Shown here one piece after another: positions 43,770 through 57,846 of a stretch of 64,000 nucleotides of DNA. This stretch comes from an uncultured Acidimicrobiia bacterium (lineage in GTDB: Bacteria; Acidobacteriota; Terriglobia; Versatilivoradales; Versatilivoraceae), in assembly GCA_963786955.1 (NCBI GenBank), contig CAWBAT010000004.1, positions 160,001-224,000 on the forward strand. Direction: 5' to 3'. The first letter of the stretch is position 1, and each line of letters begins with the position of its first letter. A program made the translations under genes and the position numbers. Below the pieces are notes generated by a model. It did not search any database and was not told where the DNA came from. It saw only the letters and a program-made list of their open reading frames with translations.

Positions 43770-46739
43770 TCACGGCTTGTTGGCTAAGAGCGCTGTCCAG
43801 TTCTGCACCAGGGTGAGCGGAGTGTTGCCATTCACTTCTTGGATGGGCACGGCGAACCGCTTACCATCCGGGGTCACGTCATAGAGCCCAACCCCTTGCG
43901 GTAGTTTGAAGAGAACCTGCTCCTTCCAGGCTTCAAAGCTATTGCCCCTCCCGTCAACTGCTACTGCCATCATCTGTTTGTCCCCCCCAGGATAAAAGAT
44001 TTCCTTGCCGTTCCCTCGCCACCTGGCAAGAGTGCCCCCGCTGGCTGAAATTCGCCATCTGCCGGCGAGTTCGATTGCAGCCCCTGAGGCAGTACTCAAA
44101 ACCTTGGTCGCGTCGAACGGCACAACGTAAATCTCGCCTTCGCCAGATTCATGTGAGGTATAAGCCACCCAGCGGCCGTCGGGAGAGAACTGCCCGTCAT
44201 AGGCGTGTTGGACAAACAGGCGCGGTTTTCGGTCGCCGTCGAGAGGCAGAACCCAGACTTCTTGTTGTAATGGGGTAAAGGGGGGTTCCGCGCGCACGTA
44301 TAGGATGAACCTGCCATCGGGAGACCAACTTGTAGGCCATATCGTCTGATCTGAGGTCCCCTGCGCCAGCACAAGCTCCATGCCACCCCCCCCGTTCGAA
44401 TTCATCTGGTAAATGCCCCGAGCCTTGGGAGAGAGCAAACGGAACAGAATCCGGCTTCCGTCTGGCGACCAGGTCATATGTTTGTGTTCTGCCTCGGGAT
44501 CGTTGGTGAGGGGCATAGGGAAGCCGCGGGCCAATTGTTCCACCCAGATATCTGAGCCTGTCTTACCTCCCAGGAACGCGAGCTTTGCCCCATCAGGCGA
44601 GACTCGCAGAGTGCCTGAATATCCCACCGCTTCGCCGGAACCTAGTTCTTTGCCGCCCCGGTCAAACCAGGTAATTCGTCTTTGTCTTAGTAAGTCACCC
44701 GCCTGATAAATCAGCACACCGTTTTCCGATACACTAAAGAAGCCGATGCCATATGAATCCAAAGCGATCCGTTCCGCAACTGGGTGAGCATCCCCCTTGA
44801 GCTGCCCCCGCTCCGGATCGAAAGCTTGCGCCATCAGTGTCTTTTCGAGAACATAGAACAGATACCCCGAGCCATAGGTAACATTGGGTACTTCTCCCTT
44901 CAGCAGGAGCCGATTTTCTTTTCCGTCCAGGGAGGTAAAATAGGTTCTGCTAGACGCAGTGTCAAGAGCGTGAGCGTGATAGAGGAAATGCTTTCCATCG
45001 GGCAGAAATCTCGGCCCAGAACAACCCTCATATTTGGATTTGTCCACTTCAAGAACGGGGACCGGGGCGCCACCTGAGGCCGCCATCTGGTACAGGCCTT
45101 TGCTGCTATCTGGCACAAACAGGAGAGTCTCCTCGCGGTTCCAGCTTCCTCCACCATAATCTGGGACATCTGCCACGATTCTGGCGGGACCACCTGATAG
45201 CTCAATAGTCTTCAGCTTCCCGTCGGCGTTGAACCCGAGCTTCCGGCCGTTTGGCGACCAGAACGGCAGAGTCCCTCGCTCCGTTCCCGCCAGGGGCTTG
45301 GCAGCGAGTGAGTCAAAGGAACGAATCCAAAGCAGTGTCTTTCCGTTCGCATCTTTGGCAGAGAATACTACAGCGGTTCCATCTGGAGAGAGCACAGGTA
45401 GGCCGCCATAATCGAAGCCGAAATTGAATTGGGTTTTCTCCGGTGGCGGTATTTCAGAGATGATGGCACGCGCCGGAGTTCGGACCACCCACAGGAAAGC
45501 CCAAGCACCGACGATCACAGCAATAAGTAAAGCGGCTACCAGCCCCCAGGCTAGTCTCTCACGGCTCCGCGTGGGAGCGATGGGCTTCAGACCTGCTGCG
45601 GTTGCGGGAAGCGCTCCACCGGCCTCAGCAATCCACCGCAGTTCGCTGGTCAGGTCGCGAGCCGTTTGCCAACGCTCATCAGGGTCCTTGTTCATACACT
45701 TCTTGACCAAGCGTTCCAAGGCCGGTGGGGTCAGCGGTTGAATCTTGGTGATGGGCGGGGGCTCAGAGGTCAGGATAGACGCAGCGAGGCTGGCTTTGCT
45801 GTCTCCTGCAAAGGCTTTTTGCCCTGTTGCCATCTCATACATGACCACACCGAAGGCAAAGATGTCGGTCCGGGCATCTATCTCCTTCCCCTCCACCTGC
45901 TCGGGCGCCATGTATTCCAAGGTTCCTAGAATCAGGCCTTCTTCGGTTAGGCTCTCGCTTTCGGGAAGGTAGGGCGCGCTCGCTGAGCGCGCCGTATCAC
46001 CATCGTTCGCTACTCCTTCGTGGGACGGCGGTTTCGGCGAAACCGCCCTACCTGACTTCGCCAGCCCAAAATCCAGCAGCTTCGCTCCTGTCTTCGTCAG
46101 CATGATGTTGCCCGGCTTCAGATCTCTGTGGACGACACCCTTGCGATGGGCTTGGTCCAGCGCCCCGGCGATTTCGATGGCAATCCTGAGAAGTTGCTCA
46201 GTGGGCAGGGGACCCTTCTTCAGCCGCTGTGCCAGCGTCTCTCCTTCCAGGTACTCCATCACCAGATAATCAAATCCCTCTGCTTGCCCAATGTCATACA
46301 GCGTGCAAATATGTGGATGATTCAAATTCGAAATGGCCTTTGCTTCCCGCTCAAAGCGTTTCCGCAAATCCGGCCGCAAAGATAAGTGCGAGGAAAGAAC
46401 CTTAACAGCGACAGTCCGATTGAGTCGTGTGTCGGTAGCTCGATATACTTCTCCCATGCCTCCTGCGCCCAACAGAGAAACAATCTTGTAGGCGCCAATC
46501 TGTCGGCCGAGCATGGAACGCGCCATATCTCCGGCAAGTCCCTGGGCCGCCACCTGGAGCACATGCTTGTCAATGAAAGGTGCCGCCAGGGTGTCATACC
46601 CCAGCAATGATTCCACTTCCCGCTGCAGCCCGTCATCACCGGAACAAGCCTCCCTGATGAAAGCGGTCCTCTCGCTTCCGCTTCGCTCCAGAGCCGAGTG
46701 GTAAATGGTCTCGATATCTTTCCAACGATCGGAAGACAT
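43770..46739 (-). CDS. Hanks-type Ser/Thr kinase with TM helix and extracytoplasmic TolB/PD40 propeller (unit 1)
   Basis: [32 protein letters not shown]; SPDG repeats. Confidence 0.95.
45968..46052. repeat. GTAG-REP doublet inside the kinase activation loop (in frame)
   Basis: GTAGGGCGCGCTCGCTGAGCGCGCC ... GGCGGTTTCGGCGAAACCGCCCTAC; copy at 53367-53451. Confidence 0.85.
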
Positions 46740-46835: not shown

Positions 46836-47429
46836 TTACCCTTTTTCAGTTTCTTTTGTCTTACGCTCTTCTATTTCCCGCAATAGCCAGGCTTTGGCCA
46901 GCCGCAAATCACGCCGAACCGTTTCGGGGGAAACACTGAGAAACTGGGCCGTCTCCTCTTCGGTCATCCCACCGAAGAACCGCAATTCCACAACCTGGCT
47001 CTTTCTTGCGTCAATTTCTGCCAATGCGTTTAAGGCCTCGTCAAGCAATACAAGGTCAAAATCGGGCTCTTCGGAAATCAGCATGGCTTCATCAAGCGCC
47101 ACCTGTTGCACACCACCCCCGCGTTTGAGGTTATTTCGGGAGCGAGCGAAATCGATCAGGATACGCCGCATCAATCGCGCCGAGACGGCAAAAAAATGCG
47201 CCCTATTCTGCCAGCTCACTTGGCTCAAGTCCACCAGGCGTAGGTACGCTTCATTAACCAGGGCCGTGGTTTGCAAGGTGTGGCCCACGCTTTGCCCGCC
47301 CATGTAGTAATGAGCCAGACGGCTCAACTCCGCATGAACCAGGGGAACAAGCCTGTCGAAGGCTCCCTGGTCTCCCTGGCTCCAGGCGAGCAAGAGCTGG
47401 GTTACCTGCGGAGAGGGGGAATTCACCAT
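46836..47429 (-). CDS. ECF sigma factor, TIGR02999-like (unit 1)
   Basis: VTQLLLAWSQGD, HTLQTTALVNEAYLRL, MRRILID, VELRFFGG. Confidence 0.93.
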   Translation of the reverse strand: MVNSPSPQVTQLLLAWSQGDQGAFDRLVPLVHAELSRLAHYYMGGQSVGHTLQTTALVNEAYLRLVDLSQVSWQNRAHFFAVSARLMRRILIDFARSRNNLKRGGGVQQVALDEAMLISEEPDFDLVLLDEALNALAEIDARKSQVVELRFFGGMTEEETAQFLSVSPETVRRDLRLAKAWLLREIEERKTKETEKG

Positions 47430-47640
47430 GAGATCCTCGCTCAAACCCGGATTTCTCACCCGGGGGAAAACGGATACGCCTTGTTTGTGCGGAATGACTT
47501 TAGTCGCGTGGGGAGCCCCGGCCTAGAAGCGGTGTAGGCCGCATGTACTCACGCAACGCTGGTGTTGAGAAACCCGATTTAACTCATTTTCTAAGATTTC
47601 AAGCGAATTATAGCATTTTTTACAGAAATTCGTCAGGACC

Positions 47641-47673
47641 TTTACCGGTTTTGAAGACGTTTCACGTCTTATA
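47641..47673 (+). promoter_or_regulatory. Putative ECF promoter 1
   Basis: TTTACCGGTTT...CGTCTTAT; same spacing as at 49579 and 55707. Confidence 0.6.
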
Positions 47674-47692
47674 GAACAAGTGAGAAAACATC

Positions 47693-47854
47693 TTGAGCCG
47701 CAAAGTCGAAGCCTGTGGGCTCACGAAGGAACCGTCTTGACCTTCTGCCGTGGGGATGATCGTTTCGGATGCATTTAATTTTCCTCCCAAGACAGTTGGA
47801 TGCAAGACAAAATTCTCCCATAACAGAGGCGGATCTGCTTCGACGCTGCCTCAA
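47693..47854 (+). ncRNA. Conserved structured leader element, copy 1
   Basis: Near-identical to 55760-55922; multi-stem fold with GTCTTG/CAAGAC cross-pairing. Confidence 0.55.
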
Positions 47855-47906
47855 AAACCTTCACTTAAAGAAGAGAAGAGAGTGAGGCCTCGGAAGAGCC
47901 GTCTAA

Positions 47907-48026
47907 GGATGATGCTGTTCATATAACCCGTTCATGCTGAGCCTATCGAAGCAAGAGCAGTTCAATTGTTCGCCATTCGAAAAACTAGGTGTGAATGGTT
48001 CTTACGTGACTGAACAGTATTGAGCC
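47907..48026. mobile_element. MITE-like element with TAA duplication and an internal REP-like pair
   Basis: TAA|GGATGATGCTGTTCA ... TGAACAGTATTGAGCC|TAA. Confidence 0.55.
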
Positions 48027-48078
48027 TAAGGAAGCTTTCGTCGTCTCAACTCCACCACGTCATTGAGGAGAGAAAATC

Positions 48079-49362
48079 ATGAAAGAAAGCCCATGCACCT
48101 GGAGAATCAAATTCCTGACGATTTCCGTGGCTCTGTCATTCGCAGCGATTCCGGTACTGTTGGCTTATTCTGTTGGGCCTCCCGCCCGGAAGACGGGCTC
48201 TTCCCGTTTTGGAGAGAATAGCTGCACCGAGTGCCATACGGGCACAGCCAATTCAGGCAGTGGGAGTTTGGAGTTGAGTGGGGTACCCAATAGTTATGTC
48301 CCCGGTCAGAAATACAATATCCGCGTCACTCTTCAGCAGGAAGGCCGCAGCCGTTGGGGATTTGAATTGGCTACCCGGACGGACAATGGGGCGCAGGCTG
48401 GGCAGTTGGAAGCGGGGGCTGATGGGTATACCCAGATTATTACGGATAACGGAGTGCAGTTCATCGAGCATACGTCAACAGGCACTCGGGCCGGTACCGC
48501 CAATGGGCCGGTGAATTTTGATTTTGCCTGGACGGCTCCGACAATCAACGTTGGAGAGATCTACTTCAGTGTAGCCGGAAACGCCGCCAACAATAACGGT
48601 GATGCCGATAGTGGTGACTCTATCTATACGAAGGAAGAGCGCGTCGATCAAACATCCGGCTCAACTGTGAGCCCCTCCTCTAACGCGTTGATCGTTCCCT
48701 TCGTGATCGATACGGCGCAATTTCGAACCAATCTTGGAATGAGCAACCTGACTTCTAATCCCGTTGATGTATCAGTAGAGCTTGTGGAAGAGAGTGGTAC
48801 TTCTCTTGCGACCAAATCATTCAGCGTCCCCGCCAGTGGACTCAATCAGGTTGGGAATGTCGTGAGGAACCTCTTGGATGCGACCTCGGTTGCCAATAAG
48901 CAAGGCTACCTTATCCTGGAACCCTCCGCTGCGGGATCGATTGCGGCCTTCGCAACTCCAATTGACAACTCCACCCAGGATTCTTCCGTGATCCAAGGCA
49001 CGCGCGGGAAGTCGACCAAAGTGGTGCTTCCCACCTCCACGTCTACAGGTCGCTTCAAGACGACGTTGACCATGATCAACGACAGCAGTGCATCCAACTC
49101 GGTCGAAATTGAGCTTTACAGCACCAGCGGAGCCAGCCTGAAGACTCAGACGGTCACGCTCGCGCCCTTCGGGTCCTTCAGCACGGATGACATCCATGCA
49201 TTCCTGGGTGCGTCAGGAACTTTCGGTCCGATTGAGCTGACCTCGACAGGTGCAAATCCAAAACCGATAATTGCCATCTCTCGAGTCTATGCGGCATTGA
49301 CCACCTCAGATGGAAAGATCGGAACAGTCAGTTCCTTCTTTGTTGCAGAACCGGTTCAATAG
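48079..49362 (+). CDS. Secreted Reeler-like domain protein with a CxxCH motif and two C-terminal beta repeats
   Basis: Signal peptide, SCTECH, YVPGQKY, WGFEL, FAWTAP, GNAANNNG; FRTNLGMSN / FKTTLTMIN repeats. Confidence 0.75.
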   Translation: MKESPCTWRIKFLTISVALSFAAIPVLLAYSVGPPARKTGSSRFGENSCTECHTGTANSGSGSLELSGVPNSYVPGQKYNIRVTLQQEGRSRWGFELATRTDNGAQAGQLEAGADGYTQIITDNGVQFIEHTSTGTRAGTANGPVNFDFAWTAPTINVGEIYFSVAGNAANNNGDADSGDSIYTKEERVDQTSGSTVSPSSNALIVPFVIDTAQFRTNLGMSNLTSNPVDVSVELVEESGTSLATKSFSVPASGLNQVGNVVRNLLDATSVANKQGYLILEPSAAGSIAAFATPIDNSTQDSSVIQGTRGKSTKVVLPTSTSTGRFKTTLTMINDSSASNSVEIELYSTSGASLKTQTVTLAPFGSFSTDDIHAFLGASGTFGPIELTSTGANPKPIIAISRVYAALTTSDGKIGTVSSFFVAEPVQ

Positions 49363-50843: not shown

Positions 50844-50994
50844 TAAGCCACCGGCAAGCCAAAATACCACTCGGCTCACTTTCCTGGGTGAACATCGCGC
50901 GCGTCTCTTGTCGAGCAAAGGCCGTGGCTGAGGGCGGGGGATGAGGGCACCCTCATCCCCTTCAGAAAGTCAGTTCCACCAACATAAAACCGTC

Positions 50995-51113
50995 TCAGGC
51001 AGCCGCCACACGCTGCACTGGGCGGTAGAGTGTATCTCTTTCAACGGGATCGCGTCCCGCTATCCGGATCAGATGTTCGATTTCCTGATGGATCATGCCA
51101 AGTGTCATCTGTG
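50995..51113 (-). pseudogene. Second copy of the mqnE 3' end
   Basis: QEIEHLIRIAGRDPVERDTLYRPVQRVAAA* versus mqnE QEIEHLIREAGRDPVERDTLYRPVHRVAAA*. Confidence 0.9.
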
Positions 51114-51156
51114 TCTGGGCAGATGCGATCCGCCCGATTAACTAAGGCATTTGGAT

Positions 51157-54135
51157 TCACGGCTTGTTGGCTAAGAGCGCGGTCCAGTTCTGCACCAAGG
51201 TGAGCGGCGTGTTGGATTGTGACCTTTTGGGTGATAATGACGAACCGCTTCCCATCCGGGGTCACTTCATACTGGGAATTACCCCAGTCTGCTACCTTGA
51301 AGAGAGCCTGCTCCTTCCGTGCTTCAAAGCTATTACCACTCCCGTCAACTTCCGCTGCCATCATCTGATCTGGCTTCTGCCGAGGTAAAAGATTTCCTTG
51401 CCGTCCCCTCGCCACCTGGGGCACCAGCCCCACTGGTCGAAATCTGCCATTTGCCGCCCAGGTTGGTTACGGCCCCGGGGTCTGTATTCAAAACCTTAGT
51501 GGCGTCGAACGGCACAACGTAAATCTGAAATTTGCCGGATTCCACGGAGGTATACGCCACCCATCGGCCGTCAGGAGAGAATTGCCCATCAAAGGCGTTT
51601 TGGACAAAGAGCCGGGGTTTGCGGTCGCCGGCGAGAGGCAGGACCCAGAATATTGTATTGCCCGGTTAGGAGGTATCCGCGCACGAAGAGGATGAACCTG
51701 CCATCCGGAGACCAGCTCGTGGGCCATAACGATCGGACGGAGGTCTCCGCCGGCAGCAGCAGCTCCTCGCCGCCTGCCCCGTTGGAATTCTTCTGGTAAA
51801 TGCCCAACCGAGCCTTGCCCGCGACTGCAGCGAACAGAATCTGGCTTCCGTCCGGCGACCAGACCGGGGCCGTAGTCAGTCCCAGGATCTGTTTGTGAGG
51901 CGCATGTGGACACCCCGCGCCAATTCGTCCACCCAGATATCACTGCTCGATCACTTGCGTCGAATGCGAGCTTTGCCCCATCAGGCGAGAGTCGCAAGAT
52001 CTCATAGCTCCCACTTTCACCAGCACTCAGCTCTTTACCGGCGCGGTCAAACCAGGTTATTCGTTTCTCTTCTTGCGAATCACCCCCCTGATAAATCAGC
52101 ACGCCGTTTTCGGATACATCAAAGAAGCCGCGACCAAAATAATCCGAAGCGACCCGTTCCGCGACTGGGTGAGCATCCCCCTTGAGTTGCCCCCGCTCCG
52201 GATCGAAAGCTTGCGCCATCAGTGTCCTGTCGCGAAGGTAGAGCAGGAAGCCCGAGGCATACGTGGCGCTGCTGCCTCCCTTAAGCAGGAGTCGATTTTC
52301 TTTTCCGTCCAAGGAGGCAAAATAAGTCCCGCTAGACGCAGGGTCAGGAGCCCATAGCGTAGATAGAGGAAATGCTTTCCATCGGGCAGGAATTTCGGCC
52401 ATAGCGAAATACAAGTATTTGGACGGGTCCAGTTTGAAAACGGGGACCGGGGCGCCGCCTGAGGCCGCCACCTGGTACAGGCCTTTGGTGATGTCTGGCA
52501 CAAACAGGAGGGTTCCCTCGCGGTTCCAGCTTCCTCCCCCATATCTGGCGCATCAGCCACGACTGCGGCGGGTCCACCCGATACCTCAAGGGTCTTCAGC
52601 TTCCCATCGGCAAAGAACCCGAGGGCTCCGGCTGTCCGCCGACCAGAATGGACGAGCTGCCCTCCCTCCGTTCCCGCCAGGGGCCGGGCAGCCAGCGAGT
52701 CAAAGGAACGGACCCAAAGCATGCTCTTTCCGTTCGCATCCATAGCAGAAAAGGCTACAGCTCTTCCATCAGGAGAGAGCACTGGCGGGCCGGCTCCGAG
52801 TGAAAGTTGAACTGAGCTTTTTCCGGTGGCAGTATTTCAGCGATGATGGCACGCGCTGGGGTTCGGACCAGGCGCAGGTAAGAAACAGCGCTGACGATGG
52901 CTGCAACAAGAAAAGCGACGGCCAACGCCCGTACAATCAGCTCACGTCTCCGCCCTCTCGCGATGGACTTCGGTCCGGCAGTTTCTGCTCCTGCCGCCGT
53001 CGCGGAAATCGCTCCACCGGCCTCAGCAATCCACTTCAATTCGCTGGTCAAGTCACGAGCCGTCTGCCAACGCTCCTCAGGATCTTTGCTCAGGCATCTC
53101 TTGACCACAGCGCTCCAAGGCCGGTGGAGTCAGCGGTTGAATCTTGGTGATGGGCGGGGGATCAGAGGTCAGGATAGCCGCTGCTAGGCTAGCCTTGCTG
53201 TCTCCTGCAAAGGCTTTTCGCCCTGTTCCCATTTCATATAGGACCACACCGAAGGCAAAGATGTCGGTCCGCGCATCTATCTCCTTCCCCTCCACCTGCT
53301 CGGGCGCCATGTATTCCAGCGTCCCTAGAATCAGGCCTTCTTCGGTCAGGCTTTCGCTTTCGGGAAGGTAGGGCGCGCTCGCTGAGCGCGCCGTGTCACC
53401 ATCGTTCGCTACTCCTTCGTAAGACGGCGGTTTCGGCGAAACCGCCCTACCTGACTTCGCCAGCCCAAAATCCAGCAGCTTGGCACCGCTCTTGGTCAGC
53501 ATGATGTTGCCCGGCTTCAGATCTCTGTGGACGACACCCTTTCGATGGGCCTGGTCCAAGGCCGTGGCGATTTCGATGGCAATCTTGAGAAGTTGCTCAG
53601 TGGGTAGAGGCCCCTTCTTCAGCCGCTTTGCCAGCGTCTCTCCTTCCAGGTACTCCATCACCAGATAATCAAATCCCTCCGCCTGTCCAATGTCATGGAG
53701 CGTGCAGATATGCGGATGATTCAGATTCGAGATGGCCTTAGCCTCTCGTTCAAAGCGTTTCCGCAAGTCCGGCCGCAGCGACAAGTGCGCGGAAAGAACC
53801 TTAATCGCGACAGCCCGATTGAGCCGCGTGTCGGTGGCCCGATACACCTCTCCCATCCCGCCCGCACCGATCCGAGCAACAATCTGGTAATGCCCAAGCT
53901 GTTTCCCGATAAGAGACTTTCGCTCTGCAGCCAGGTTCTCCGCGCCGATTTGAAGTGCCGACCTATCAATAAACCCATCCGCTCGGGCTTCATAAGCCAG
54001 CAATGATTCCACCTCACGACGCAGCTCCTCGTCTCCCTGGCAGGCTTGTTCGAGGAAGGACGGACGCTCCTCTTCCGCCACCTCTAAGGCTGCAACATAA
54101 ATCCGGCTAATGATTTCTAAACGGTTGGAAGCCAT
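51157..54135 (-). pseudogene. Ser/Thr kinase-TolB paralog (unit 2) with multiple frameshifts
   Basis: Colinear with 43770-46739 but split over many ORF fragments. Confidence 0.85.
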
Positions 54136-54589
54136 AAGTACCGCGACGCATGTTAAGTGACATCTTCACAAACAAGAACTCGCGGAATCCTTCGCACTTT
54201 GAAGGTCTGCGGGGTCTGGAACACTGCACAGCCATGCCGCACACTCCACACTTCAAGCTCTGGATTGCCCTATTTCTCTTTAATGCCGGGAACTAGGAAT
54301 GACACCCATTATACAACAATGCCGGGCATGTTGCGGGGAATTAAGACAGGCTAACGATCGAAGATCCTCATCCATTGATCTCCCTGTGTGCAATCTGATC
54401 GTTACCCATACGTCCGATTGCTGGACACAGGAGGCGGGTATCTGGTTAGGGCGGCGGGGCATGTTCGCTCCACTTCCCCGCTCCCCCGCGCTGAGAGCGG
54501 GGTTCTGGATCCTGACAGAAAATCGCGGGGGAGCGGGGTTCATATCGGGGGAACCTCGACCCAGGGCGGCGGTCGTTCCACTCCCTTGC

Positions 54590-54858
54590 CTTATAACCAT
54601 CTTTGCCGCTATTCGAGTGATTGCTTACAAATGGACACGCATCCTGTTTCGTTGTTGGAAAGAGCGGGTTCCTTATGATGAATCCAAGTATCTTCAAGCC
54701 TTGCAGCGGCGCAATCCTCAACTGTGGGTGGCCAGCCAGCAGCCGCCTCCGCCGCGGTCCAAGAAAAAGGCGGCCTGAAGGAAATTGGCTGTGAAAAAAA
54801 TGTACCGGCTTTGAGGATAAATTTACAAGTAACACTTGACAGACCACCTCAGATGTCT
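54590..54858 (+). mobile_element. Internally deleted mini-IS110
   Basis: CT|TATAAC left end, transposase C-terminus AYKWTRILFRCWKERVPYDE, right end TTGACA-N15-CT; splits a CTTGC-CT-GGGCTA REP. Confidence 0.8.
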
Positions 54859-55048
54859 GGGCTACAGTCTTACGCCCCTCCAGGGCTGAAAACCCGTTCT
54901 CTGTGCGAGTTTCCGTACCCTCTGTGTCCAGCGGAAAAGATATGGGGCACGATCAGGTTAGCAATGAAGACCCAGTCCATTGAGGCGGCTTGAGAACTCC
55001 GTAGGCGTCACGGAGCTCCACCCTCCACCCAGAGATGCACATACTCCG

Positions 55049-55624
55049 TCATCCCTGTTTTCTGTCCATTTCTCTGAGAAGCCAGACCTTGGCCAATTTC
55101 AAGTCGCGCCGAACCGTTTGGGGTGAAACCTTCAAAACCTCCGCGGATTCTTCCTCAGTCAATCCTCCGAAAAAACGCAGTTCCACGACTTGCCCCATTC
55201 GCGGGTCAGCCGCGGACAACGCGTTTAAGGCGTCGTCGAGCGCAACCAAATCGGCATCGGGCTTCTGTAAAATAACGGTGGCTTCATCTAAGGTCACCTG
55301 CTGAGCTCCGCCTCCTCGCTTCTGGTATTTTCGAGAGCGGGCAAAGTCGACCAAGATGCGCCGCATTAACTGTGCCGAGACAGCCATAAAGTGAGCTCGA
55401 TCTTGCCAGCGCACCTGGCTTGAATCCACCAACCGCAAATAGACCTCATTGACCAGCGCCGTTGTTTGCAGGGTATGGTCTGGGCGTTCGGCGCTCAAAT
55501 AATGATGCGCCAAGCGGCTTAATTCCCCGTGAACGAGAGGAATTAACTTATCCAGAGCTGCCTGCTCTCCCTGACTCCAGGCTAGTAACAGCTCAGTCAC
55601 TTCCGAGGACGGAGACCTTGACAT
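55049..55624 (-). CDS. ECF sigma factor, TIGR02999-like (unit 2)
   Basis: VTELLLAWSQGE, HTLQTTALVNEVYLRL, VELRFFGG. Confidence 0.93.
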   Translation of the reverse strand: MSRSPSSEVTELLLAWSQGEQAALDKLIPLVHGELSRLAHHYLSAERPDHTLQTTALVNEVYLRLVDSSQVRWQDRAHFMAVSAQLMRRILVDFARSRKYQKRGGGAQQVTLDEATVILQKPDADLVALDDALNALSAADPRMGQVVELRFFGGLTEEESAEVLKVSPQTVRRDLKLAKVWLLREMDRKQG

Positions 55625-55706
55625 GCTGTCCTTTCTGATCTTGCCATGTCCCAATCATATCACCAGAGCCCAGCTACTTGGTGCTTCGAAAAAAAGTCCG
55701 TTCGAC

Positions 55707-55738
55707 TTTAGCGGTTTAGGGGTTATTTCCCGCCTTAT
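55707..55738 (+). promoter_or_regulatory. Putative ECF promoter 3
   Basis: TTTAGCGGTTT...CGCCTTAT. Confidence 0.55.
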
Positions 55739-55759
55739 GCAGCAAAGGGAGAAAACATC

Positions 55760-55922
55760 TTGAGCCGCAGATTCGAAGCCTGTGGGCTCACGAAGGAACC
55801 GTCTTGACCTTCTGTCGTGGGGATGATCGTTTCGGATGCATTTAATTTTCCTTCCAAGACAGTTGGATGCAAGGCCAAGTTCTCCCATAACAGAGGCGGA
55901 TCTGCTTCGACTGCTGCCTCAA
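55760..55922 (+). ncRNA. Conserved structured leader element, copy 2
   Basis: Near-identical to 47693-47854; ends just before the AAGGAG RBS of the 55949 gene. Confidence 0.55.
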
Positions 55923-55948
55923 AGACCTTCAACTAAAGGAGAATTATC

Positions 55949-56584
55949 ATGAAAACCATTCGTTTTCAGACCCGTGTTGCCTCGTTTGTGATCAGCGGGG
56001 CGCTGCTCGCTCTGCTTTCACCTGGGCGGGTGATGGCCCAAGGAAATGCCGTGCCCAACGATTCGTCCGCCATTCTACTGAAGGGACTCTATGGGCCCGT
56101 GGTTAAAGGACCCAACCTCGGCCTGTCGATGGTGGACTTGAATGATGGTTCAACATCAAAAACAAGATCTACCCCGTTAACGGAACTCCCGGTAACGAGA
56201 ACGAAAAAAAGGCAATCGGTGACTTTTACGCGCAGTTCCCGGCGGGGGATTTGTGTGCCTACCACCTCCCGGGAGGTTCGTTTGCAATGCGCTTCTTACG
56301 GGGGGACAATGTCACTTTGTTCCCGACGGGGTCTTTGCACCACATGTAGGAACAATCGAACTGACGATCTCCAGTTTACCGCGCACAACTATATAACGGT
56401 AGACAACCTGGCAGGCACTGCCGTGATCAAAGGTTTCGTCACGGATGGGCCGCTGGCTGGCGAGCGAGTGGATGGGGAATACCGGGTCATCAGGCCCTGC
56501 GGGATCATTAATGCACAGATCGGCTCAGGCGGCGATGTTTGTTTCCAGGGCAATCTCGTCATTAGACCAGGTTCTGCGGACTAA
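55949..56584 (+). CDS. Secreted hypothetical protein, internally frameshifted and possibly chimeric
   Basis: RBS and signal peptide; 56152-56330 reads more plausibly in another frame (IYPVNGTPG..AIGDFYAQF..LCAYHLPGG). Confidence 0.55.
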   Translation: MKTIRFQTRVASFVISGALLALLSPGRVMAQGNAVPNDSSAILLKGLYGPVVKGPNLGLSMVDLNDGSTSKTRSTPLTELPVTRTKKRQSVTFTRSSRRGICVPTTSREVRLQCASYGGTMSLCSRRGLCTTCRNNRTDDLQFTAHNYITVDNLAGTAVIKGFVTDGPLAGERVDGEYRVIRPCGIINAQIGSGGDVCFQGNLVIRPGSAD

Positions 56585-56730
56585 ACTCCCGGCAAGCCAG
56601 AAAACCCCACGGCTTACTTCCCTGGGTGAACAGGTCGCGCGGCGCTCGTCGCGCGATGGACGTGGCTGAGGGCGGGGGATGGTGGTATTCACCTCCCCCC
56701 TCAGAAAATCAATCCCACCTACAAACCGTC

Positions 56731-57846
56731 TCAAGCAGCCGCCACACGATGTACCGGCCGGTAGAGTGTATCTCTTTCGACTGGGTCCCGACCGGCTTCC
56801 CGGATCAAATGCTCGATTTCCTGACGCGTCATTCCCACGGGCGTCTGAGCGCCCGCCATGTGTACGATTTTTTCTTCGACCACTGTCCCGTCCAGATCAT
56901 CCGCTCCAAAGTTCAACCCAATCTGAGCTGTCTTGGTCCCGATCATGATCCAGTAGGACTTGATATGCGCGAAATTATCGAGCATCAATCGGGACACGGC
57001 AATCGTCCGCAAGTCGAGCATGGCTGTGGGCGGAGGCAGATGGCTCAGTTGGGTGTTGGCCGGATGAAACGCCAACGGGATGAAACATTGGAAGCCCCCG
57101 GTCTGGTCTTGAAGCTCTCTCAGCCGAATGAGGTGATCGACACGTTCCTCCACTGTTTCTACATGGCCATACAGCATTGTGGCGTTCGAGCGAAGTCCCG
57201 CTTCGTGGACTTTACGGGAAATCTCCAGCCAGCGCTCGGCGGACACTTTGTGGTCACAAATGATGTCGCGTGCTCTTTCGGCAAAGATCTCCGCCCCTCC
57301 CCCCGGGCAACTGTCCATGCCAGCTTCTTTTAGCGCTTGAATGGTTTCTTCAACTGAAAGCTTTGCCCGCCGCGCCAGGAAGTCAATTTCCACCATGGTG
57401 AAGGCTTTCAGATGGACGTTCGGCAAACGCTCCTTTAATCCCCGCAAAAGGTCCGTGAAATAAGAAAACTGCAGGTAGGGATGCAAGCCTCCGACAATGT
57501 GAATCTCGGTGACCGCTTCGGTGTAACCCTCAGAAGCGTGCTGGAAAGCTTCTTCCAGGGACATCGTGTATCCACCCTTGTTGGGTTTGCGCGCAAATCC
57601 GCAGAACTTGCAGTCAACCACGCAAACGTTGGTGGGATTAAGATGGCGGTTGATGTTGAAATAACCTACATTGCCATTCAATTTTTCCCGCACCCAATTT
57701 GCCAGTTTCCCGACTGTGTGAATATCAGGGGTCGTGTAAAGCGCAACTCCATCTTGAAAAGAAAGGGGCTTCCCTTCAAACACTTTCTCGGCAATGGCAG
57801 CCAATTCTGGGCTCATCAGGCGGCTTTCAATTGAGGATGCTTCCAT
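56731..57846 (-). CDS. mqnE: Aminofutalosine synthase (radical SAM, CofH/MqnC/MqnE family)
   Basis: NPTNVCVVDCKFCGF, EIHIVGG.HP, HLKAFT..EI, PGGGAEIF, HIKSYW, DLDGTVVEEKI. Confidence 0.88.
   Translation of the reverse strand: MEASSIESRLMSPELAAIAEKVFEGKPLSFQDGVALYTTPDIHTVGKLANWVREKLNGNVGYFNINRHLNPTNVCVVDCKFCGFARKPNKGGYTMSLEEAFQHASEGYTEAVTEIHIVGGLHPYLQFSYFTDLLRGLKERLPNVHLKAFTMVEIDFLARRAKLSVEETIQALKEAGMDSCPGGGAEIFAERARDIICDHKVSAERWLEISRKVHEAGLRSNATMLYGHVETVEERVDHLIRLRELQDQTGGFQCFIPLAFHPANTQLSHLPPPTAMLDLRTIAVSRLMLDNFAHIKSYWIMIGTKTAQIGLNFGADDLDGTVVEEKIVHMAGAQTPVGMTRQEIEHLIREAGRDPVERDTLYRPVHRVAAA

Follow-up and report, generated by a model that had tools for sequence, protein, structure and literature searches.

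The closest described relatives of the signalling system considered here are the ECF43 pairs EcfP/PknT of Vibrio parahaemolyticus and EcfK/PknS of Xanthomonas citri. According to the portions of the reports available (PMC13147305; also PMC8999054 and PMC7826278), ECF43 members carry a QTTA motif in place of the acidic motif of sigma region 2.2, and the threonine of that motif is the phosphorylation site in both EcfK and EcfP. The locus described here resembles those systems in having QTTA in place of the acidic motif and a Ser/Thr kinase gene adjoining that of the sigma factor. It differs in that its putative target gene carries a leader, none being mentioned in the portions of PMC8999054 and PMC13147305 at hand; as far as the available extracts of the literature go, no description of a conserved leader at the target genes of ECF/kinase systems was found.

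Structured cis-regulatory 5′ leaders of several kinds (riboswitch-like, protein-responsive, or serving as 5′ stabiliser hairpins) lie between promoter and ribosome binding site (RBS) and are conserved as nucleotides, not codons. The present element is like them in both respects, and also in its predicted multi-helix fold with a closing helix that includes an anti-Shine-Dalgarno-like tract. Unlike them, it is without an Rfam match, its covariation is not established, and it was found in just two genera and in environmental contigs. MicA, RybB and MicL are ECF-dependent small RNAs of the sigma-E regulon. RNA here would likewise come from an ECF-type, though putative, promoter, but in contrast to those small RNAs the leader lacks a terminator and is contiguous with a coding gene in five of six sequences. 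What it has in common with REP and MITE elements is the possession of short inverted segments; unlike them it has two copies, none scattered or inverted. The element is real and undescribed, and is a candidate leader attached to the putative target of a kinase-activated ECF sigma factor.

Two leader copies beside sigma factor and kinase genes

The window, by which is meant the whole stretch of 64,000 nucleotides that was analysed, had been the subject of a preliminary description that placed a structured block of about 165 nt at 47693-47854, with a second copy at 55760-55922. Both copies are real at those places, but the conserved block reaches beyond them: its 5′ border is AAG(G/T)GAGAAAAC at 47678 and 55745, and in the alignment its 3′ border is the RBS region, at about 47875 and 55944. 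The features that matter are as follows.

47678 to 47875, plus strand: leader copy 1 (w1), conserved block, with about 200 nt of unique sequence separating it from a gene for 427 aa
55745 to 55944, plus strand: leader copy 2 (w2), conserved block, its 3′ end at the RBS GGAGA (55938-55942) of the gene starting at 55949
47642 to 47672, plus strand: promoter-like boxes of copy 1, TTACCGGTTT (47642-47651) and CACGTCTTAT (47663-47672), a motif seen by eye in alignments
55708 to 55738, plus strand: promoter-like boxes of copy 2, TTAGCGGTTT (55708-55717) and CCCGCCTTAT (55729-55738), likewise seen by eye in alignments
46836 to 47459, minus strand: ECF43-like sigma factor of module 1 (PF07638, TIGR02999, QTTA motif)
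43770 to 46739, minus strand: Hanks-type Ser/Thr kinase with PD40 repeats, module 1
55049 to 55654, minus strand: ECF43-like sigma factor of module 2 (PF07638, TIGR02999, QTTA motif)
53077 to 54135, minus strand: kinase domain of the Ser/Thr kinase of module 2, the rest being in separate frames further downstream
55949 to 56584, plus strand: gene 3′ of copy 2, 211 aa, of which the C-terminal 72 residues belong to a secreted beta-barrel family
48079 to 49362, plus strand: gene 3′ of copy 1, 427 aa, with a choice-of-anchor V domain and a CxxCH motif, unrelated to the beta-barrel family

Over a trimmed core (47678-47854 against 55745-55922) the copies differ in 9 of 178 alignment columns, through 8 substitutions and 1 indel, and so are about 95% identical; some ten differences had originally been counted by eye. 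The divergence claimed for the flanks is also borne out: the ECF sigma genes of the two modules share 66.8% nucleotide identity, against the ~95% of the leaders, the spacers between ECF start and leader 32-33%, and the genes 3′ of the two copies are mutually unrelated. A BLAST search of the 5.65-Mb genome with 47680-47875 found exactly two places, at 100% and 94% identity (3-195 of 196), with the same orientation and the same context. As no 12-mer of the element occurs more than six times in the genome (both strands, the two copies counted; expected, about 0.7 by chance plus the two copies) and there are two copies only, the element is not a repeat of REP or MITE type. With Rfam 15, cmscan gave no match at the gathering threshold across the whole window and none at E up to 10 in 47500-48100.

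Each leader points away from an ECF sigma gene, and a gene for a Hanks-type Ser/Thr kinase comes after the latter. The two sigma genes match PF07638 (E of 1e-49 and 8e-52) and TIGR02999 (209 and 215 bits, the cut-off being 126), and LQTTALVNE, i.e., QTTA in sigma region 2.2, is invariant in all four aligned sigmas; with family type, motif and adjacent Pkinase genes all present, these are ECF43-like sigma plus Ser/Thr kinase modules. The sigmas of modules 1 and 2 are 68% identical in protein and the kinase domains 79%, and the modules are an old tandem duplication. Module 2 has a second cargo gene (56626-57333), and 47 residues of a short ORF at 50941-51141 (plus strand) are 55% identical to its N-terminus; this remnant (50959-51099) marks the duplication as having involved the whole module. 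The kinase gene of module 2 is split (51160-54135, minus strand) into a 352-aa kinase-domain ORF, 53077-54135, and subsequent fragments, in different frames, corresponding to residues 344-989 of the module 1 kinase, which is intact at 989 aa; it is either a decayed gene or the product of indel errors in assembly.

There are six ECF43-like sigmas in the genome, and the regions upstream of the other four have no similarity to the leader (local alignment scores of 24-33 against shuffle means of 29-30.5). Upstream of the closest sigma paralog (contig C8, 26444-27016; 72% amino acid identity to that of module 2) there is a similar promoter-like TTACCC...TTCCCGCCTATATAG, and the first 20 transcribed bases there are similar (AGGGAAAAATCGAG), with no leader homology past them and no significant local alignment. 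Several further observations concern the genes and the genome. Only residues 140-211 of the 211-aa ORF at 55949-56584 match the beta-barrel family, and its N-terminal two thirds look out of frame with respect to the orthologs in the related genomes G002 and G004. The choice-of-anchor V assignment of the 427-aa protein (48079-49362) is to NF041895, at 94 bits, and its motif near the N-terminus, CTECH (CxxCH), is haem-binding-like. The genome has 51.5% G+C and a sigma repertoire of planctomycete/acidobacterial type, in view of which the Acidimicrobiia label carried by the G002 and G004 contigs may be unreliable.

Relatives, cargo gene and shared ancestry

Among the 31 genomes of the family, BLAST found leader relatives in two besides the window's own genome, G000: G002, of the same genus, at 92% identity, and G004, of another genus, at 82%; the element is thus present in 3 of 31. 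An exact 21-mer scan of genome contigs recovered the same G002 and G004 loci, and such a scan of metagenome contigs yielded three contigs with two distinct sequences, L008 and L009 (the same as L010). The alignment set therefore consists of six distinct sequences: w1, w2, G002, G004, L008 and L009/L010. A covariance model (R1) run on 151 genomes gave matches in four, one of them at chance level, with nothing beyond the known relatives, and BLAST on a phylum sample gave 1 of 401 genomes and no further relatives. Two matches were set aside as chance, one by covariance model in G123 (E = 0.048, 20.8 bits) and one of 27 nt by BLAST in G044 (E = 0.0067; 61 relatives searched); no conclusion draws on G123, a genome marked as unpublished. 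Found in two genera and in environmental contigs only, the element is narrowly distributed.

Some environmental sequence can be added. Of the words sampled from 55500-56600, between 5 and 19% are present in 20 of the 24 public sequencing runs listed (15 studies), and four of the runs were compared with the window in detail. In a soil metatranscriptome run a 229-nt contig, which is possibly contaminating DNA, covers 55767-55940 with 8 differences and 3 gaps; contigs of this kind give neither strand nor ends. Contig depth summed within a sediment DNA run reaches 69 in the bin 55759-55795, the bins on either side standing at 26 and 41, and the peak coincides with the hairpin termed H2 below.

To which gene does the element belong? 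In all of its relatives (G002, G004, L008 and L009/L010) it lies just 5′ of a gene whose product is secreted and has about 165 aa. The original account had the block begin just after a promoter-like site divergent from the ECF sigma gene and, in copy 2, end just before the RBS. That placement holds, the distance from the 3′ end of the element to the cargo start codon being 15-35 nt in five of the six distinct sequences; copy 2 ends 15 nt 5′ of GGAGA and the ATG at 55949 of the 211-aa gene. Because this distance is steady while that to the ECF gene varies (90, 206, 218 and 413 nt), the element is taken to belong to the cargo gene. The cargo protein has no family in Pfam or NCBIfam, occurs in 3 of the 401 genomes of a class sample, which are exactly those with the element, and is matched by 306 cluster representatives of a large protein library at E up to 0.001. 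It is predicted to be an eight-stranded beta-barrel (pLDDT 86.6), and a fold search gave weak matches to barrels of AbyU/Cyc15 type (best E 7.4e-3, TM 0.45-0.51).

For distant pairs of loci the leader is 78-86% identical, the sigma gene 53-65% and the spacer 19-48%, the third codon positions of the sigma gene being saturated at 32-47% identity. The cargo gene, by contrast, has 69-76% identity at third positions between genera (L012, L007, L010), or 79-83% at identical residues, compared with 48% for rpoB and 32-40% for the sigma gene; for rpoB, third positions are 83% identical between G000 and G002 and 48% between either and G004. Since leader and cargo are far less diverged between genera than is the genome background, a cassette of promoter, leader and cargo gene is taken to have been recently exchanged, as these comparisons suggest. 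Strong constraint at the nucleotide level on the whole cargo gene would be an alternative, and is considered less likely.

The identity of the two copies within the window has a further source. The copy 2 sigma gene is 97% identical to that of G002 and only 67% to that of copy 1, and yet at seven columns (96, 97, 100, 107, 110, 115 and 140) w1 equals w2 and is unlike all four other sequences. Derived states that are exclusive to the two copies in this way indicate concerted evolution, by gene conversion between the modules after the split of G000 and G002, and a conversion tract of about 200 nt largely explains how identical leaders stand between diverged flanks. Recent gene conversion had been named at the outset as what might lie behind the identity and nothing more. 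For the comparison of the two copies this is largely so, as the seven shared derived columns indicate, but not for the 5′ 60 nt across lineages, where conservation exceeds that of four-fold sites. The borders of the identical block coincide with promoter and RBS, which is compatible with selection having limited the spread of conversion.

A comparison of G000 with G002 (53600-55840 against L015/L007) has a mosaic character. The N-terminus of the kinase (97% amino acid identity), the sigma gene (97% of nucleotides) and the spacer (94%) are near-identical, the 5′ half of the leader has 3 differences in 93 columns and its 3′ half 10 in 85, and the rest of the kinase (76% amino acid identity) and the cargo gene (82% of nucleotides) are diverged; this suggests that recombination breakpoints fall within both the leader and the kinase. 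Gene conversion and a recently shared cassette account for most of the striking identity. The caution of wider use is that identity of paralogs against diverged flanks can reflect gene conversion and mosaic ancestry, and not structure.

What conservation is then left for selection? Near-neutral sites of the adjacent cargo gene served as the benchmark for G002, G004 and L009/L010: among its four-fold sites 36 of 56 are invariant, and among its third positions 99 of 160, the four-fold benchmark being one gene of 164-167 codons that may itself have been recently exchanged. The whole leader has 137 of 178 columns invariant (p = 0.08 against four-fold sites, 0.003 against third positions) and columns 1-60 have 53 of 60 (p = 0.004 and 0.0001), with 30 of 31 in columns 29-59, whereas columns 61-135 (53 of 75) and 136-178 (31 of 43) are not above four-fold sites (p = 0.46 and 0.52). 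Extra constraint beyond the near-neutral benchmark is thus seen on the 5′ 60 nt of the leader only, and to this same stretch the sediment depth peak also points.

Fold of the leader

The fold proposed in the preliminary description had an outer stem, further hairpins and a loop-loop contact. The complementary segments listed for it do occur in copy 1, whose minimum-energy fold contains that outer stem and the GCAUUUAAUU hairpin, and the stability of the whole-element fold of copy 1 is ordinary (z = -1.55, 15 of 200 shuffles folding as well). On the six sequences, 87.3% of the cells of the proposed fold are paired and 35 of 276 are broken, no pair has both partners substituted, and 258 of 500 shuffles equal this result, so that the proposal is not supported. 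Its CACG/CGUG helix is broken in L008, G004 and L009, its outer stem is broken by variation at columns 16, 23, 28 and 35, and the GCAUUUAAUU hairpin is restricted to the two window copies. GTCTTG (47734-47739) and CAAGAC (47788-47793) are complementary, as had been pointed out, but the kissing loop or switch helix built on them is lost in G004 and L009, where there is a gap or mismatch at columns 60 and 62.

RNAalifold, applied to the same six-sequence alignment, gives an alternative fold with a three-way junction.

47680 to 47686, plus strand: H1, 5′ strand, GUGAGAA in copy 1 and GGGAGAA (55747-55753) in copy 2, columns 3-9, Shine-Dalgarno-like
47813 to 47819, plus strand: H1, 3′ strand, UUCUCCC (UUCUYCC, columns 136-142), 55880-55886 in copy 2, anti-Shine-Dalgarno-like
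47689 to 47728, plus strand: hairpin H2, columns 12-51, stem UGAGCC/GGCUCA, 55756-55795 in copy 2, the best conserved part
47734 to 47808, plus strand: central domain P3, columns 57-131, 55801-55875 in copy 2, with a variable loop and both compensatory pairs
47826 to 47852, plus strand: 3′ hairpin H4, GAGGCGG/CUGCCUC, columns 149-176, 55893-55920 in copy 2

With this fold 95.8% of cells are paired, all four indels fall in unpaired columns, and there are two compensatory pairs, C-G to U-A in copy 2 (columns 71/115) and U-A to C-G in G004 (columns 74/112). The structure is not statistically established, because there are only six distinct sequences and its covariation is reached by 71 of 500 shuffles. 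Variable columns number 16 of 88 paired and 37 of 90 unpaired (p = 0.001), an enrichment that is partly circular as the fold came from the same alignment; for the earlier fold the corresponding figures are 29 of 94 and 24 of 84. Within columns 12-51 all six variable columns are unpaired in the RNAalifold fold. Column shuffling of the alignment gives z = -2.77 for the plus strand, a score that 2 of 200 shuffles attain, and -1.73 for the minus strand, and 19 G-U cells of the fold would be A-C mismatches on the other strand. Folded singly, four of the six sequences agree with the RNAalifold architecture and two with the outer stem proposed earlier. H2 is predicted independently in all four isolated 5′ fragments, at ordinary stability (z of +0.30 to -1.46 for the 5′ 60 nt), and an exhaustive scan for helices of at least 4 pairs disclosed no convincing covarying helix or pseudoknot. 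The RNAalifold fold is a plausible candidate and fits the variation better than did its predecessor.

The word GGAU occurs four times, at conserved columns 77, 90, 121 and 154, in all six sequences (with one GGAC in L009), which in the window corresponds to 47754, 47767, 47798 and 47831 and to 55821, 55834, 55865 and 55898. The expectation is about 0.5-1.4 occurrences, and as many as were observed arise in 0-19 of 500 dinucleotide shuffles, for a motif chosen once the data had been seen. GGAU may be a repeated protein-binding word. Regulation by GGA-binding of the CsrA type was rejected, as a search of G000 (93% complete) for a CsrA gene (PF02599) found none and there is no enrichment of GGA.

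A cis-acting leader and its rivals

Could recent copying alone, by gene conversion between the modules and by cassette exchange, have kept alike a block with no regulatory role beyond that of a spacer? The seven derived states that w1 and w2 alone share are what such copying would leave, as is the closeness of cargo third positions between genera relative to rpoB and the ECF gene, and columns 61-178 are indistinguishable from four-fold sites. It is nevertheless unlikely to be the whole explanation, given that columns 1-60, with their nearly unbroken run at 29-59, are significantly more conserved than such sites, that environmental depth peaks on the same 5′ stretch, and that the identical block has promoter and RBS as its borders. 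A metabolite-binding riboswitch with an outer stem, two hairpins and a kissing loop or switch helix, which the preliminary description had offered as a candidate, would be of a new class as there is no Rfam match, and its architecture is the minimum-energy fold not just of copy 1 but also of L008. It is nonetheless highly improbable: the failings of that fold (compensatory pairs absent, the same 35 of 276 cells unpaired, about half of the shuffles as good) are joined by the failure of G004 and L009 to keep the loop-loop pairing and one hairpin, by the narrow distribution already described, and by a cargo that is a secreted protein without known function, neither a metabolic nor a transport gene. 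In the 31 family genomes and the sets of 151 and 401, the element was not seen to recur ahead of functionally coherent genes in many lineages. Scarcely more credible, and if anything less so, is the other candidate offered there, an independent ECF-induced small RNA acting in trans. Copy 1 might seem to suit it in having no cargo directly behind, the next gene being some 200 nt on, but the absence of a terminator after the element argues against a separate small RNA. No terminator-like site is present in 47300-48300 or at the end of copy 2, where the two sites found fall inside the downstream gene (56171-56186 and 56236-56248), and in five of six sequences the block runs straight into the RBS. 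The palindrome-like outer segments TCGAAGC/GCTTCGA had evoked a caveat about REP-type palindromes and the prospect of scattered, randomly oriented, MITE-like copies; with two copies alike in orientation and context and no 12-mer found more than six times, a mobile repeat is refuted for this genome and its probability is negligible.

Constraint confined to the 5′ 60 nt could also act on a peptide or on DNA. The relevant frame is the following.

47693 to 47740, plus strand: possible 15-codon upstream ORF, TTG...TGA, 55760-55807 in copy 2

That a translated upstream ORF of 15-38 codons, with its TTG/ATG at 47693 and 55760, is the functional unit controlling the downstream gene has in its favour that GGGAG (GUGAG in copy 1) stands 8 nt before TTG/ATG in all six sequences, that the frame is open in all six and that the sole change of start codon is TTG to ATG. 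Shine-Dalgarno and start codon are conserved, then, as in a leader peptide, but length is not, nor are the substitutions of coding type: the stop varies to give 15, 21 or 38 codons because of a 1-nt indel at column 60, and of the variable columns in codons 2-15 four of five are at first or second positions and one at a third, so that selection appears to be on nucleotides, not on a peptide. The start codon, moreover, is inside the predicted H2 stem, and the peptide reading is held to be quite unlikely. To the same degree doubtful is an element acting as DNA, in which +1 to +60 would be an operator or extended promoter, contacted by a repressor or by the sigma-RNA polymerase complex. Constraint is indeed on sequence and not on pairing, the loop and tail of H2 being as invariant as its stem, and the stretch includes both an inverted repeat, TGAGCC-N18-GGCTCA, and GGAAC-N15/16-CGY, which resembles an ECF promoter. 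The -10-like triplet of this internal motif varies, however (CGT, CAT, CGC), and its spacer changes in length, on which grounds GGAAC-N16-CGT was rejected as a true promoter; the contig from the RNA run begins upstream of the motif, and both the alignment z-score and the G-U pairs speak for RNA of the plus strand. Taken together, the G-U pairs, the strand asymmetry and the RNA-run contig, which is perhaps DNA carry-over, lean towards RNA over a DNA operator.

The reading that we favour, and to which we give a probability of about one half, is that the element is a lineage-restricted, cis-acting RNA 5′ leader of an mRNA, with its 5′ domain under constraint. A leader of about 200 nt would be transcribed from an ECF-type promoter pointing away from the pair of ECF43-like sigma and Hanks Ser/Thr kinase genes, and its normal cargo would be the small secreted beta-barrel protein, with promoter, leader and cargo gene making up one cassette whose divergence between genera is much smaller than that of the genome background or of the neighbouring sigma gene. 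Copy 1 is in a paralogous sigma-kinase module that has lost its beta-barrel gene, and recent gene conversion with copy 2 has made the two alike. Within the RNA, the 5′-proximal hairpin H2 is predicted to bury the TTG/ATG of the short upstream frame, 8 nt after the Shine-Dalgarno-like GGGAG, while H1, in which 5′-terminal GGGAGAA pairs with downstream UUCUYCC, would close the three-way junction. UUCUYCC could instead pair with the cargo RBS, GGAGA, and such a switch would set translation or stability. In constrained folds, with the 5′ end blocked, the predicted accessibility of the cargo RBS underwent no consistent change, and the step of a translational switch is therefore speculative. The fold of the leader could be a second layer of control on the mRNA, after the gating of its transcription by sigma factor phosphorylation.

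A much bolder proposition is that the leader represents a new class of sensing RNA, for ligand or protein, that would impose a post-transcriptional checkpoint beyond the phosphorylated ECF43-like sigma and travel with its cargo between genera as an exchangeable cassette; we regard this as distinctly unlikely. For now the element is a candidate of narrow distribution among uncultured bacteria of soil and sediment, and of use as an entry in a motif catalogue. If its 5′ domain is a working RNA element, an undescribed leader would be tied to kinase-activated ECF sigma signalling, a pathway for which RNA-level control is not mentioned in the portions of the literature at hand, and it would be a regulatory leader that moves with its cargo gene between genera.
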